From a virus (taxonomy: Duplodnaviria; Heunggongvirae; Uroviricota; Caudoviricetes): 54,039 nucleotides of DNA. The stretch is from IMG/VR virus record IMGVR_UViG_2541047747_000003, one strand, 5' to 3'. Shown here piece by piece: positions 9,200 through 44,587 of the stretch. The notes under the pieces were generated by a model. It worked only from the letters and a program-made list of their open reading frames with translations. It did no database searches and was not told where the DNA came from. Position 1 is the first letter of the stretch. Each line of letters opens with the position of its first letter. The translations under genes and the position numbers were made by a program.

Positions 9200-9504
9200 C
9201 GCATTTTCTCCTATGGTTAGAGTGAACGCGCGGGCGGGCATCCCATTAGCATTAGATAGCAGTGACTGACCGCTCAACAGATCCCGCCGTTGCGTGATAT
9301 TTGTTTTTCGCTTCGCAGCGACACCGGATTTTTAAAGAGCATAAGGTAAGTGCCTTTTTGTGCCTTCCGTTATCTTTTTCCTTGCGTCTTTGCAAGTATG
9401 GCCTTACCTTGTCTGCAAGTTTACAAAATGGAATTTTAAGATCAAGGCTTAAAATGCACGTTTTGTGACTTGCATCAAACTTTTTGAGGTTATAGGGTAG
9501 CGAC

Positions 9505-10152: not shown

Positions 10153-10275
10153 ACATTAGCCGCCGGATGGCGGCTTTTCTTTGCCTGGAAAACACCAAAA
10201 CGTAAACAGAAAACGTTATTTATTGTTTAAATATCAATAGCATATAAAATATTTTAAAAAAGTATACAAAATGGA

Positions 10276-10304
10276 TTGACTCGATGTTTTACGGGGCGTA
10301 TATT
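10276..10304 (+). promoter_or_regulatory. Sigma70 promoter (PL-like): -35 TTGACT, 17-bp spacer, -10 TATATT
   Basis: TTGACT at 10276-10281 and TATATT at 10299-10304; flanked by 8-bp inverted repeat TTGACTCG/CGAGTCAA (10276-10283, 10306-10313), a possible operator. Confidence 0.5.
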
Positions 10305-16983: not shown

Positions 16984-17744
16984 GTGGGCTTAGAAATTGG
17001 GTGGTGTGGTCGCTGTACGACGGCAGCGGATACGCCGTTAAAGATTGGGCCGACGCTGGTTATAAATGCTATTGCTTCAACTATGATGGCGCTAATCACG
17101 GCGATTATGAAGGCGTCAAAATCATTCATCCGAACATTGAGTATATCAACGTATGGATTGACAGCCATTTCCTGGTAATGTTCTCCCCTGAATTGTCTGT
17201 TTATCCAAATCCTGACATTATCCTGGGCTTTCCTCCGTGCGACGATCTTGCGGTGTCCGGCGCTCGCTGGTTTGCTGATAAGCGGAAAAAAGAACCTTAC
17301 TTCCAGCAGAAGGCGGCATACAACGCAAAACTGGTAGAAACGCTTGCTGATATGTACCACGTCCCGTGGATGGTGGAAAATCCGGTAGGTGCGCTGTCAA
17401 CGTTATGGCGCAAACCTGATTTTATCTTCAACCCGTGCGCTTACGGTGGCTACCTGCCTGAAGACGACAAACACCCTGCTTTCCCTGAATACATAGCTGC
17501 CCGCGACGCATACACGAAGAAAACTTGTATCTGGTGCGGGAATGGATTTAAGCAGCCGCTATTCCGGCCTGTACCTATGCCGGATGAATGGGAAGACAGC
17601 AAACAGCACGCGAAGTTAGGAGGAAAGTCGAAACGCACTAAGATGATCCGCTCACTAACGCCGCGCGGCTTTGCCCGTGCTGTATTCCTGGCTAACGACC
17701 GGGCCATCACTCGTACTACGCTTAACCGCATTTTACCGGACTAA
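16980..17744 (+). CDS. DNA cytosine-5 methyltransferase-like protein (divergent motifs)
   Basis: 254 aa; motif I-like LYDGSG, motif IV-like GFPPCDD (PCQ-like), motif VI-like VENPVG; no large target-recognition domain. Confidence 0.5.
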   Translation: MSGLRNWVVWSLYDGSGYAVKDWADAGYKCYCFNYDGANHGDYEGVKIIHPNIEYINVWIDSHFLVMFSPELSVYPNPDIILGFPPCDDLAVSGARWFADKRKKEPYFQQKAAYNAKLVETLADMYHVPWMVENPVGALSTLWRKPDFIFNPCAYGGYLPEDDKHPAFPEYIAARDAYTKKTCIWCGNGFKQPLFRPVPMPDEWEDSKQHAKLGGKSKRTKMIRSLTPRGFARAVFLANDRAITRTTLNRILPD

Positions 17745-20762: not shown

Positions 20763-20974
20763 AAAAAGCTGGCCTATCAATTAGCCGTGTATTGTGCGGT
20801 GACGAAAACGAGATCCGCATAGAAATTAAATTTAGCACAGGTAAAGAGATAATCCTTTACACGACGCCTGAAAACCTGACGCTGGCGCTTACTGGTAAAT
20901 CTGAAACGCCGTGCGACGTCCGGTTGCGCAATATTGAAATTAAGGAATTAAGGAAGGTGAAAGATGAAAAGTAA
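20759..20974 (+). CDS. Hypothetical protein
   Basis: 71-aa ORF. Confidence 0.45.
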   Translation: MKKAGLSISRVLCGDENEIRIEIKFSTGKEIILYTTPENLTLALTGKSETPCDVRLRNIEIKELRKVKDEK

Positions 20975-21182
20975 CCGTAAACGCCTGGTAAGGGCGTATG
21001 ACAAAGCGTTAAAGGCTTTTGACGACCTGCGGCACAATAAGCGCCAGCGCCGCAAGTGGGCGCGAATGCTTGTTAATGAATGGCATTATCCTGATGCCGC
21101 CTTGATAGAAGGCGCACCGCCATTTACACAGGAGCAAGCCGACGAAGTGGCTAACGATAACGTTTATTATATGATGTGGTGA
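20964..21182 (+). CDS. Hypothetical protein
   Basis: 72-aa ORF. Confidence 0.45.
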   Translation: MKSNRKRLVRAYDKALKAFDDLRHNKRQRRKWARMLVNEWHYPDAALIEGAPPFTQEQADEVANDNVYYMMW

Positions 21183-22017: not shown

Positions 22018-22241
22018 AAGTTAAATTCTTGCACGATCACGGATACCCGTCATTGAAACAGGTTGTTGGTAAGGTCGTTAATGTCGTTCATAGCGATGAT
22101 ATTGCTTGCATGATTAATGGTGCTGATCTCATTGCTGCTGGTGCTGATGACCATTACATCAATCCGGCGTGGTCGTATACGTTCAGCCAGGGCGACTTCG
22201 TGGGCGATAAGGGGCGCGGGCTGCAAGTAGTCGAGGGTTAA
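22014..22241 (+). CDS. Hypothetical small protein
   Basis: 75-aa ORF. Confidence 0.45.
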   Translation: MKVKFLHDHGYPSLKQVVGKVVNVVHSDDIACMINGADLIAAGADDHYINPAWSYTFSQGDFVGDKGRGLQVVEG

Positions 22242-23613: not shown

Positions 23614-23711
23614 ATGTGATCTGTATCACAAGGTTTACGAAATGGCATTGTTTCGGCAGTGCCATTTTGTTATAAAGAAGCTGAAGAGAGAACGATGCGG
23701 AGGGTAGAAAA

Positions 23712-25326: not shown

Positions 25327-25505
25327 TTGAAGATGGTATATACGCCGTAACACTAATCGACAAGATGTTTTATCGCGTAGAGGGTGGTGATATTCGCGTT
25401 TGCGTTAGCGATGGTGAGTGGGTAGCGCCAATCATCAAGACGACGCGAGAAACAATTAAAATCTGGCTTGATAATGGCGATTTGGTGAAAGTTAGTGATT
25501 TGTAG
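25323..25505 (+). CDS. Hypothetical protein
   Basis: 60-aa ORF coupled to the upstream gene. Confidence 0.4.
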   Translation: MIEDGIYAVTLIDKMFYRVEGGDIRVCVSDGEWVAPIIKTTRETIKIWLDNGDLVKVSDL

Positions 25506-25610
25506 CCATAATCGCGCATAAAAAACAAATAGATTAAAATATTTCCTAACAATGCGAAATTGTAATTACCCGGCCACGAGCCGGGTTTTTGCTTTGTTGG
25601 AGGAAAATCT

Positions 25611-38089: not shown

Positions 38090-38788
38090 ATGATCCATGT
38101 TCGTACAGGACAATTTGCTGCCGTGGTGAACGGTAAGCGCTATGAGTTTAATCCTTGCTTTGCTGCGATGGCTAAAATCGGCAACGATAGTGAGCTTGTC
38201 GAATATTTCGCACTTATCCACGGCGGCAAATATCCATCACGATTGCCAGCAGATCCAGACCTACGCAATCGCATTCTGGCGCGGTGTTATGGTGAAATAG
38301 TTCAGACATCAATGCACATCCTGAAATGTTGCTCAGACGACGAAATAGGCCCGTTATTGGGCGAATGCTGGTTTACTCCTTCGGGTAAGTTAAAGTTAAA
38401 GCCCGGATTAATGCCGATCGAGGATATCATCACGCTTGCGCAGCACTGCATGTACCACGGTCTTATTGGTGATGGCCCGGAAGAAGAGTCCGGGGAAATC
38501 CCGGAAGGGGAATATAAGCCGACTTTTAACGTCCTTGAATTCGTCTATTCTGCCGTTGCTCACCTGGGCTTGTCAGAATCGGAAGCATGGAATATGACAA
38601 TGACCGGATATAGGGCCGCTGTACGCGCTAAAACGCCGCCAGACGAAAGAAACGAGAAAAGCAAGCCAAACATTCACATAAATAAACGTGCTTATGACGA
38701 GCAAATGGAGGCCGCTAAAAAGGCACTAGAAAGAATGAAAAATCGTGAGCAAGAAAAGCCCGGTAGATCCGGGCGTTTTGCTAATTGA
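38090..38788 (+). CDS. Putative tail assembly chaperone
   Basis: Start chosen at MIHVRTGQF; positional call between tube and tape measure; no frameshift site identified. Confidence 0.45.
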   Translation: MIHVRTGQFAAVVNGKRYEFNPCFAAMAKIGNDSELVEYFALIHGGKYPSRLPADPDLRNRILARCYGEIVQTSMHILKCCSDDEIGPLLGECWFTPSGKLKLKPGLMPIEDIITLAQHCMYHGLIGDGPEEESGEIPEGEYKPTFNVLEFVYSAVAHLGLSESEAWNMTMTGYRAAVRAKTPPDERNEKSKPNIHINKRAYDEQMEAAKKALERMKNREQEKPGRSGRFAN

Positions 38789-39872: not shown

Positions 39873-39912
39873 TATACAAAATGGAGTCGTTGAAGTAAAG
39901 CCATTTTGTATA
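39873..39912. promoter_or_regulatory. Perfect 12-bp inverted repeat TATACAAAATGG / CCATTTTGTATA with 16-bp spacer
   Basis: Intergenic, between the divergent lipoprotein gene and the tape measure gene; a copy pair of the dispersed motif. Confidence 0.6.
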
Positions 39913-39952
39913 AAATAGATACACAGATCACATTTTTGCATGAGGTTAAATC

Positions 39953-42298: not shown

Positions 42299-42327
42299 AA
42301 ACCCCGGTGCAATGCCGGGGTTATTTT
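42299..42327 (+). terminator. Rho-independent terminator after the tape measure gene
   Basis: CCCCGGTG-CAAT-GCCGGGG then TTATTTTT; near-identical to the terminator at 35713. Confidence 0.7.
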
Positions 42328-42381: not shown

Positions 42382-42636
42382 TCACTTATGAGTGCCTTTC
42401 ACGCCACATAACTTGTTATAGGCACGGTGCTCAACAATTAACCAAACCTTCAAATCTTCGCTAAACAGCCTCCAATCAAGATTGATATCCATTTTGTATC
42501 CGTAACCGTCGCGTAACTTTTTGGGGTAAACTTCTTTTCTCAGAAAGGCTTTAAGTAATTCCTTACCTTTCTTGATGATCCGGTCCTGTGCGTTTTTCTG
42601 TGCTTTCAGATTTCTGTCAATCGCTACCAGTTTCAT
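42382..42636 (-). CDS. Possible RelE/ParE-like toxin (84 aa), low confidence
   Basis: Small basic protein; C-terminal hydrophobic strand ending in HR (VWLIVEHR) resembles the RelE/ParE C-terminus; GGGGTGAG RBS; follows a 50-aa ORF. Confidence 0.35.
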   Translation of the reverse strand: MKLVAIDRNLKAQKNAQDRIIKKGKELLKAFLRKEVYPKKLRDGYGYKMDINLDWRLFSEDLKVWLIVEHRAYNKLCGVKGTHK

Positions 42637-42659
42637 AACTCACCCCATCATCCTTAGTT

Positions 42660-42812
42660 AAGTGCCTTCAGGAAGAAGTCCCGGTATTCATCTTCTTTCG
42701 CATTCATCATGAATTGACCGTATTTGAATGCGTCGTCGAAACCCTTAACGATTGCTATTTCCACTTGTTCGAATGCGTTATTTAGCATTACTACTACATA
42801 GCGTTTCATTTT
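42660..42812 (-). CDS. Hypothetical small protein (50 aa), possible antitoxin partner
   Basis: Hand-translated MKRYVVVMLNNAFEQVEIAIVKGFDDAFKYGQFMMNAKEDEYRDFFLKALN; upstream of and close to the 84-aa ORF. Confidence 0.3.
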
Positions 42813-42976
42813 GGGCCTCCTTCGTTGGTACTACTTTCTTCTTGCTTTCTATATACATCTTGTTGCGTGCTATGTGAAGCCATTTTGTAAACTAGCTATA
42901 ATCATTGTGACAATGATCTTATTTTTCGCGTAGAAGCGCGTAAAGATATATACAAAATGTAACTTGTGGGGGTTTT

Positions 42977-43330
42977 ATGCCGGAAGTGTTCAGATGGACG
43001 CCGCAAAGAAGCTACAGCGTGACCAGGAAGCCAGACGTATCTGTTGTTAAGCTGGGCGATGGTTATGAGCAAAGACAGGTAAAAGGTATCAATCCATTGC
43101 TTGATAGCTACACCCTGGTGTTTAAAGGCAGTAGCGCCGGATGTGGTGATGGTGGAAACGTAGCAATCCAGGCGGAAGCATTCTTGAGGGCGCGCGGCGC
43201 GGTCGAGGCTTTTTACTGGTCGCCGTCAATGGATAACGTGCAAAGGCTTTTTGTCTGTCGGCAATGGAGCATGACTAAAGACGGGCCTTTGTACACGCTA
43301 AACGCAACGTTTGAGCAAGTTGTTGGCTAA
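42977..43330 (+). CDS. Minor tail protein (lambda M-like)
   Basis: 117 aa; first gene after the tape measure, conserved lambda tail-tip gene order. Confidence 0.65.
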   Translation: MPEVFRWTPQRSYSVTRKPDVSVVKLGDGYEQRQVKGINPLLDSYTLVFKGSSAGCGDGGNVAIQAEAFLRARGAVEAFYWSPSMDNVQRLFVCRQWSMTKDGPLYTLNATFEQVVG

Positions 43331-43527
43331 TGGGGGTTGTTATGTACGGGACTTGTGTAGTTGACAAAACTTACGCTTTTACATTGTTTGACGACTATGA
43401 GATCAACGACCTTACTGTAAAAGCTGACAACGGCGATATATGGTATCTTCACGACGTTGGTGATGGGTACGTTGGGTGTAGATCCCGGGAAGGGAAGGAG
43501 GTTTTATTTTTGGTTGATGGCGTATAA
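43330..43527 (+). CDS. Hypothetical small protein
   Basis: 65-aa ORF followed by a terminator. Confidence 0.35.
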   Translation: MGVVMYGTCVVDKTYAFTLFDDYEINDLTVKADNGDIWYLHDVGDGYVGCRSREGKEVLFLVDGV

Positions 43528-43533
43528 ACACGA

Positions 43534-43561
43534 CCCCGCGCGAAGCGGGGTTATTTTTATT
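43534..43561 (+). terminator. Rho-independent terminator
   Basis: CCCCGCG-CGAA-GCGGGG followed by TTATTTTTATT. Confidence 0.6.
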
Positions 43562-44458: not shown

Positions 44459-44587
44459 AACGCACCTCCGCGCCATTTTGTTAACTATGCTTCCGTTTGA
44501 GTAAAATATACATATTGTAAAAACCGCGATCAATCCATTTTGGTATGATTTAGCGTGACGCAGATCACAGAATGACAAGGTGAGAAA

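Follow-up and report, generated by a model that had tools for sequence, protein, structure and literature searches.

A conserved two-copy motif upstream of the portal and M-like genes of mEp021-group phages, a candidate control site for late genes

Phages Mu (C) and P2/186 (Ogr/B) repeat one activator site ahead of each of their separate late operons for head and tail; the Ogr site is TGT-N12-ACA near −55 and the Mu C site is a dyad at −30 to −55, and we know of no Q protein in Mu or P2/186. The late promoters of P1 have a good TATAAT and a repeat centered near −22, and to our knowledge P1, unlike the phage described here, has not been shown to use a Q antiterminator. Lambda CII sites (TTGC-N6-TTGC) are direct tetranucleotide repeats with a 10-bp period in promoters that have no good −35, and the lambda late promoter PR′ carries ATTG-N6-ATT at −28 to −16 (read directly from its sequence). 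Lambda Q binds a 13-bp asymmetric site as a monomer, touching positions 1 to 4 and 11 to 13 (PMC9388147).

The mEp021 phages, recently named mEpimmI (PMC11893012), are a recently defined, gut-prevalent group of temperate coliphages in which so far only early N-like antitermination has been studied. The group uses an extra nut site, and the detailed 2025 paper on it covers early antitermination, immunity, integration, and receptors and describes no late-gene signals (PMC11893012). We analyzed a 54,039-bp stretch of viral DNA (IMG/VR record IMGVR_UViG_2541047747_000003, hereafter the window), which over its structural region is ~86% identical to this group of temperate Escherichia coli phages, composed of mEp021, mEp010, mEp013, mEp044, mEp515, mEp554, and MagusPhagus. 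An initial annotation of the window had pointed to an element repeated upstream of two late genes, proposed to be a late-operon re-initiation or processing site or a binding site for a late regulator, and it is this element that we describe here.

Two copies of the motif in the late region

The motif, ATTTTTCGCGTAG-nnn-CGCGTAAA, occurs on the plus strand at 30541–30564 (site P) and 42921–42944 (site M), and both repeat copies of the initial annotation are thus present where it had placed them and on the same strand. The identity that it gave, 23/25, is too high, as the two 25-mers agree at 22/25 positions (23/26 if the leading T in its title is counted), and the pattern in that title was one C short, the real form being TAG-N-A-N-CGCGTAAA. 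The similarity extends downstream, with 30/36 matches between 30540–30575 and 42920–42955; a score of 29/36 or better was absent from 2,000,000 position pairs drawn at random. These are the only two sites in the window that match ATTTTTCGCGTAGNANNGCGTAAA with three or fewer mismatches (0.00 expected from 100 dinucleotide shuffles), and in a scan of the window up to 8 mismatches there were no further copies at 1 to 4 mismatches. At 5, 6, and 7 mismatches the counts match Markov expectations of 0.4, 2.4, and 11, and the 5- and 7-mismatch matches include reverse-complement images of sites P and M themselves. The additional degenerate copies for which a search had been suggested therefore do not occur above chance in the window, and the same scan found no motif before the lysis genes, terS, or the tape-measure (TMP), L, or tail fiber genes. 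A left-half look-alike at 25368–25394, in a 60-aa open reading frame (ORF) before the late cassette, has the same spacing to a −10-like hexamer; we ascribe it to chance because it is confined to the window's own type and is not conserved. We also set aside a 12-mer common to both site regions in inverted orientation, CCCCCACAAGTT, which is not conserved as such in the relatives. In the whole window, CGCGTAAA occurs seven times on the plus strand and not at all on the minus strand (~1.7 expected per strand), and CGCGTA occurs 29 times versus 14 expected; this plus-strand bias may reflect codon usage, because most of the copies lie inside plus-strand genes.

Site P (TATTTTTCGCGTAGCAACGCGTAAAC, 30540–30565, plus strand) lies, in the window and at the same position in all relatives, in the gap between the large terminase gene terL (Terminase_6C; 28954–30438, plus strand) and the portal gene (PF06381, Phage_portal_3; 30587–31966, plus strand), which is the first gene of the head block. 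Its core is CGCG-TAGCAA-CGCG (30547–30560, plus strand), in which the last three bases of the center vary, and the portal ATG at 30587 is 22 nt after the motif. From the end of terL to site P there are 102 nt in the window versus 35 nt in mEp021; the ~70 extra bases after the terL stop (30439–30510) are found in the window and some relatives, and hold the AT-rich palindromes TTGATTATTATCAA and CTTCGAAAAATTTTCGAAG, neither of which is predicted to be a terminator. Lambdoid prophages of Enterobacter and Citrobacter with ~60% identical portals have a different terminase type and a terL–portal gap of 15 nt without the motif, and because these prophages do without it, the motif-bearing gap is a regulatory spacer added at a module joint. 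In mEp021 (22039–22075 of its record) an indel removes the usual portal ATG, with ATTATATTG in place of ATTATGCC, and in consequence that record starts the portal at an ATG in the conserved block just after the motif; a TTG behind AGGAG is a likelier start than the annotated ATG. We note that most RefSeq annotations of E. coli prophages name the portal (Phage_portal_3, DUF1073) an "anti-CBASS protein Acb1 family protein," which is probably a naming artifact.

Site M (TATTTTTCGCGTAGAAGCGCGTAAAG, 42920–42945, plus strand; core CGCG-TAGAAG-CGCG, 42927–42940, plus strand) is conserved in all relatives and sits in a 167-nt divergent intergenic region between a ParE-like island and a lambda M-like minor tail gene (PF05939, Phage_min_tail; 42977–43330, plus strand). 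The ATG of the M-like gene at 42977 is 31 nt after the motif, and the initial placement of the element upstream of the portal and M-like genes is correct at both sites (22 and 31 nt to the ATGs). The M-like gene is followed by a 65-aa ORF (43330–43527, orf65) and then by a bidirectional terminator (43532–43552). To the left of site M, a minus-strand 51-aa ORF and a ParE-like gene (PF24732), which resemble a toxin–antitoxin pair, occupy 42382–42809 and are served by a minus-strand promoter, TTCACA-17-TATATA (42850–42878), both hexamers of which are invariant. In two relatives (L014 and L050) the 51-aa gene is precisely absent, with the ParE-like gene in its place and both motifs kept; pairing of the 51-aa ORF with the ParE-like gene, or toxicity, is doubtful because of this absence. 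A plus-strand TATAAT at 42897–42902, which precedes the first CGCG of site M by 24 nt, is invariant in 35 unique sequences and may be a separate promoter (P_M); the motif would then span roughly +12 to +36. Its weak −35 kept it from being called in the promoter scan. Just upstream of site M there is also a CRP-like TGTGA-N6-TCTTA (42906–42921; TCTCA in most relatives), centered ~41 bp before the putative transcription start at 42954, and site P has no counterpart.

Four minus-strand islands break the tail cluster, before the tape-measure gene, M, L, and the tail fiber gene, and strong bidirectional terminators are located at 38758, 42300, 43532, and 51487. The view that each copy follows a terminator or a gene gap thus holds loosely for the gaps, but no terminator is predicted between the terL end (30438) and site P, and the nearest plus-strand terminator before site M (42300–42322) is 600 nt upstream, beyond the minus-strand island.

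The window also holds other repeats. CCATTTTGTA (with at most one mismatch) is far commoner, with ~24 sites in the window that mark most intergenic regions; examples are 39875–39884(−)/39901–39910(+), 23636–23645(−)/23662–23671(+), 17749(−)/17814(+), 9422(−), 10265(−), 42880(+), 42951(−), and 51917(−), and two of the pairs are inverted repeats with spacers of exactly 16 nt. On one strand it abuts a −10-like TAnAnT, and on the other TACAAAATGG stands directly upstream of −35 hexamers, as in PR (TACAAAATGG-A-TTGACT-17-TATATT, 10265–10304) and the ParE-island promoter (TACAAAATGG-C-TTCACA-17-TATATA). It is probably a general promoter module or the site of a global regulator, and is probably the repeat that the initial annotation had counted as its first. 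ACAGATCACA occurs at 39923–39932, 44560–44569, and 51911–51920 (ACAGATTACA before the fiber gene) and precedes the start codons for the tape-measure, L, and tail fiber proteins by 18 to 46 nt; these late blocks are without the CGCG motif.

Anatomy, conservation, and distribution

The core of the element, CGCG-N6-CGCG, presents two invariant CGCG(TA) patches that are 10 bp apart from start to start, or one helical turn, with T5 to their left, TAAA to their right, and three free base pairs at the center. Two readings suit the core, an imperfect inverted repeat (TTTTCGCG / CGCGTAAA) and a direct repeat of 10-bp period (CGCGTAG / CGCGTAA), of which the direct one has fewer exceptions. The element is asymmetric, with TAG fixed on one side only and a reverse complement that is 5 to 7 mismatches away from the consensus, and both copies are oriented alike relative to the downstream gene, as expected of a directional signal. 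Agreement between the sites runs on downstream of the motif as T-AAAsAT-rTAynC-R; the hexamer variants (AAAGAT, AAATAT, AAAGGT, AAACAT, and AAACGT) differ only at positions 4 and 5, and the C before the putative start purine, which is 7 nt after the hexamer, is invariant across the relatives. From this pattern of constraint, site P would have a −10-like AAACAT (30562–30567), followed by GTATTC and a start at A30574 (30562–30574 overall, plus strand), which is the first base of the AGGAG Shine-Dalgarno sequence; of 42 sequences, 41 have TAAACAT and 40 have GTATTCAG. The corresponding elements of site M would be AAAGAT (42942–42947), ATATAC, and a start at A42954 (42942–42954, plus strand), and the second A and the last T of this hexamer, for which AAATAT and AAAGGT also occur, are invariant.

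All seven GenBank phages of the group carry the two copies in homologous places (two per record), as do ~50 IMG/VR contigs, and both are also found in 23 metagenome contigs. The motif occurs in 35 of 5426 complete E. coli genomes, with sites P and M always together. Within the phage database it is confined to the seven group members, and in the GTDB representative genomes (596 Gb) there are five motif matches versus ~4 expected—chance level—and nothing for the portal; with the pattern loosened, IMG/VR gave some 28 matches beyond the group, in unrelated contexts. One relative (L104) has a 157-aa HNH homing endonuclease gene inserted between the motif block and M, ~33 nt after the motif, which leaves the block intact ahead of whichever gene stands first.

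The arms are invariant in ~100 independent sequences, and the neighboring intergenic DNA varies freely. Column analysis of 42 unique site-P and 35 unique site-M sequences showed variation inside the motif to be confined to its three central bases—seen as CAA, AAG, AGG, AAT, CTA, CGA, and AAA—and to two columns at the left end of site M that vary at low frequency. Variable columns make up 3/24 of the motif versus 48/89 (54%) outside it at site P (Fisher p = 3.6e-4), and 5/24 versus 98/158 (62%) at site M (p = 2.5e-4), p values that are rough since the columns are drawn from related sequences. The CGCG and TA/TAAA bases are fully invariant, without compensatory or wobble changes, which argues for recognition of specific bases over pairing alone; the members of the group are too alike for co-variation between the sites to be analyzed. 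The motif is thus a two-copy element, constant in position and orientation, restricted to this lineage, and under purifying selection.

What the motif may do

A binding site for a late regulator, one of the roles proposed at the outset, fits a selected, sequence- and orientation-specific element just upstream of two late genes, and we consider a protein-binding control site for late genes to be the most likely role of the motif. More specifically, we favor—tentatively, as one possibility among several—a protein-recognized DNA site that marks two factor-dependent internal late promoters. A protein would recognize the motif base-specifically through the CGCG(TA) patches one helical turn apart, and the motif would replace the −35 and spacer contacts, abutting the weak −10-like AAAsAT, with the C-A context 6 nt after the hexamer setting the start of transcription. 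Transcription of the head block (portal onward) would begin near 30574 and that of the tail-tip unit (M and the 65-aa ORF) near 42954, and these internal promoters would supplement the Q-antiterminated late transcript. This reading draws on the invariance of individual bases, the one-turn spacing of the patches, the constant orientation and distance to the gene that follows, and the conserved hexamer and start context, and also on the block kept ahead of the first gene in L104 and the motif-free 15-nt terL–portal gap of the more distant prophages. Binding by a protein, activity as promoters, the positions of the starts, and a role in activation instead of repression are inferences from the sequence.

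Several features bear on such promoters. AAAsAT matches TATAAT at 3/6 positions, neither site has a −35-like hexamer, and a scan for sigma-70 promoters (−35 and −10 hexamers 16 to 18 bp apart, at least 9/12 matches) found none attributable to the motif at either site; the only nearby match (TAAACA-16-TATTAT, 30561–30588) overlaps the start codon. The earlier suggestion of re-initiation is therefore compatible with the weak −10-like hexamer, the C-A context, and the shared spacing, but not in the form of a canonical sigma-70 promoter. Counting against the promoter reading, the portal mRNA would have its Shine-Dalgarno sequence at the very 5′ end, and the other plus-strand blocks that come after minus-strand islands (TMP, L-K-I-J, and tail fiber) lack the motif; internal promoters could also be dispensable, since Q and the lysis-gene cassette could transcribe the whole late region. 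Pfam and PHROG comparisons gave no activator or regulator among the islands and ~45 small ORFs, most of which have no known function, and no Ogr-like CxxC (zinc-finger) protein was found in the window.

The alternative that the bound protein represses rather than activates has some appeal, but we think it unlikely. As an operator or roadblock, the motif would let its protein block RNA polymerase, at site M the polymerase coming from the TATAAT 24 nt upstream and at site P the polymerase leaving terL, so that the head and tail-tip genes would stay off until late, or in the lysogen. Operators typically have such a dyad-like form with a free center, the unit of M and orf65 is bracketed by bidirectional terminators like an independent cassette, and the invariant TATAAT (42897–42902, with its weak −35) just before site M would make the motif part of a transcribed leader, where either an operator or an RNA element would be expected. 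Site P, however, has no conserved upstream promoter (its TAAAAT is TAAAAA in many relatives), Q-modified polymerase would still need to pass the motif, and the conserved downstream AAAsAT-rTAynC-R block is left unexplained; nor is there a nearby repressor candidate, since orf65 is acidic and two genomes with both motifs lack the 51-aa ORF. The latter absence (from L014 and L050, both motifs being kept there) also weighs on the idea that the motif is the operator of the 51-aa ORF and ParE-like operon, with a stray second copy before the portal. Antitoxins commonly bind repeats one helical turn apart, and site M does belong to the operon's promoter region, where it precedes the −35 by ~45 to 70 bp, but this is upstream of, not over, the conserved TTCACA-17-TATATA promoter, and site P is far from any toxin–antitoxin gene, making a toxin–antitoxin operator very improbable. 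We give equally little credence to a motif without a function of its own, a short duplication in which ectopic gene conversion maintains the likeness of the copies. An Erf-type recombinase is encoded by the phage, and there are hints of exchange between the sites: the center is usually CAA at P and AAG at M, yet a few P sites (L004, L030, and L123) carry AAG, and the M site of one contig (L071/L017) has the P-type CAA, its P site also being CAA. Conversion accounts neither for the invariance in ~100 divergent genomes with variable adjacent bases nor for the fixed orientation and distance to the start codons.

Alternatively, the motif may act as RNA: it would form a hairpin in late mRNA (CGCG stem, UAGnnn loop, and U5/UAAA flanks) bound sequence-specifically, and a protein or nuclease would set the processing, stability, or translation of the portal and M messages. 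The sense strand carries both copies, with ribosome-binding sites 22 to 31 nt further on, and at site P the motif must be transcribed within the terL–portal message. An AU-rich single strand beside a hairpin is a classic RNase E context, and a 72-aa ORF just downstream of Q (20964–21182, plus strand; phrog_8758) has an arginine-rich stretch, RHNKRQRRKWARM, like those of N-type RNA-binding peptides. The short site M segment folds at −10 kcal/mol with z = −2.7. The 31-nt segments fold at −6 to −10 kcal/mol, and in context z is +0.2 to −1.4; the folds are thus weak, lack significance in context, and do not have the same best register at P and M. Covariation lends the stem no support because the stem columns never vary, which speaks neither for nor against structure, and Rfam gave no match at gathering score over the whole window, with only noise around the sites (E ≥ 0.55). 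On balance we regard the RNA reading as doubtful, and the processing site that had been suggested is disfavored as a purely structural hairpin, given the weak fold, the differing registers, and the lack of compensatory change.

A further candidate for the bound protein is Q itself. The window encodes a lambda-family Q (PF03589, E = 2.9e-30; phrog_127) with a zinc-ribbon region, and the Q gene lies 5.5 kb upstream of the late cassette, with ~24 small ORFs between them. This cassette, before the holin gene, contains a promoter, an invariant TAAAAT, and a terminator at 25568–25592 (25485–25592 overall in the window, about 17340–17440 in mEp021), and differs upstream, reading ...TTTGTAGCCATAATCGCGCATAAAAAAC... 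in the window versus ...TATTTGTAGAGCGTAAAC... in mEp021. The mEp021-type cassette is probably the real Q site, because the TAAACA-TAAAAT spacing of 13 nt equals that from the lambda −10 to the pause element (at +1 to +6 in lambda); it has TATTT..GTAG..GCGTAAAC in common with the motif, in the same order. CGCG-N6-CGC has the geometry of the lambda Q site and would be at −27 to −15 of the putative promoters, like the lambda Q-binding element (QBE), so the motif could in principle be a secondary binding site for the phage's own Q. Against this, CGCG-N6-CGCG is in neither cassette variant, no −10-like pause element follows P and M at a matching distance, no terminator closely follows site P, and the third degenerate copy (25368–25394) is found only in the window's own type. 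The absence of the motif from the cassette, the want of a common pause element, and the unconserved third look-alike leave the Q reading improbable, and we are just as skeptical that the helix-turn-helix body of Q would contact CGCG at positions 1 to 4, and its zinc arm CGC at positions 11 to 13, at both motifs. If it were true, the head and tail-tip blocks would each have their own Q-responsive entry point in the late operon, a previously undescribed case of one Q-type antiterminator or activator serving several sites.

Other candidates were tried and rejected. No terminator was found by scan at either site, and the motif does not have the form of one, because the T-run is 5′ of the hairpin on the plus strand and the A-run follows the hairpin on the minus strand, leaving no U-run on either strand. 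It is not a nut site, having no boxA, and loops of AGCA and AGAA versus the G-first loops of boxB; the three nut sites in the window have boxA GCTC(A/T)TTAA and loops of GGAAG, GAAA, and GCGA. The RfaH ops site has only GTAGC in common with the motif, the consensus sequences of alternative sigma factors (54, 32, 28, and E) were not matched by eye, and CRP does not serve as an explanation, TGTGA-N6-TCTCA being at site M only. The immunity operators, ACTTGCA-type repeats near 9380–9470, are unlike the motif, and a pac/cos or recombinase site makes no sense with two direct copies 12.4 kb apart inside essential genes.

Comparison with known systems

The two motif copies suggest that late transcription in these phages is not a single lambda-style read-through unit and may have internal control points instead, possibly because the tail cluster is split by four minus-strand islands of accessory genes. 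If confirmed, factor-dependent internal late promoters would provide a handle for finding the late regulator and would aid the engineering or silencing of structural-gene expression in these prophages. The motif is not by itself a new kind of mechanism and would be a lineage-specific regulatory element of a familiar general kind; what is unusual is the pairing of the portal and a tail-tip gene only, in a phage with both N-like and Q-like antitermination.

Among regulatory sites within the group, the mEp021 nut sites, used by the N-like Gp17, resemble the motif in having a short G+C stem and a purine-rich loop in the sense strand. The lambda CII sites are, like the motif, direct repeats with a 10-bp period; however, CII repeats flank a −35 that is ~12 nt from the −10, and at CII spacing only site M has a −10-like hexamer, site P having CAGGAG, and CII promoters serve lysogeny rather than late genes. 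The QBE of lambda PR′ has two short contact patches one turn apart with an uncontacted center, located between the −35 and −10, an arrangement that the motif with its putative promoters would match, but sites P and M, unlike PR′, have no shared sigma-dependent pause element or nearby terminator, and the phage's own late cassette lacks the motif. The activator sites of Mu C and P2/186 Ogr/B are further upstream than the motif and unrelated to it in sequence. We liken the motif to the Lpa-dependent late promoters of P1, in which a conserved short repeat, the site of the late activator, takes the place of the −35 before late operons. No Lpa-like protein was recognized in the window, and P1 has 11 such promoters versus two copies of the motif, each with a weak −10-like hexamer; with AAAsAT taken as the −10, the center of the motif dyad would lie at about −20.5, close to where P1 has its repeat.
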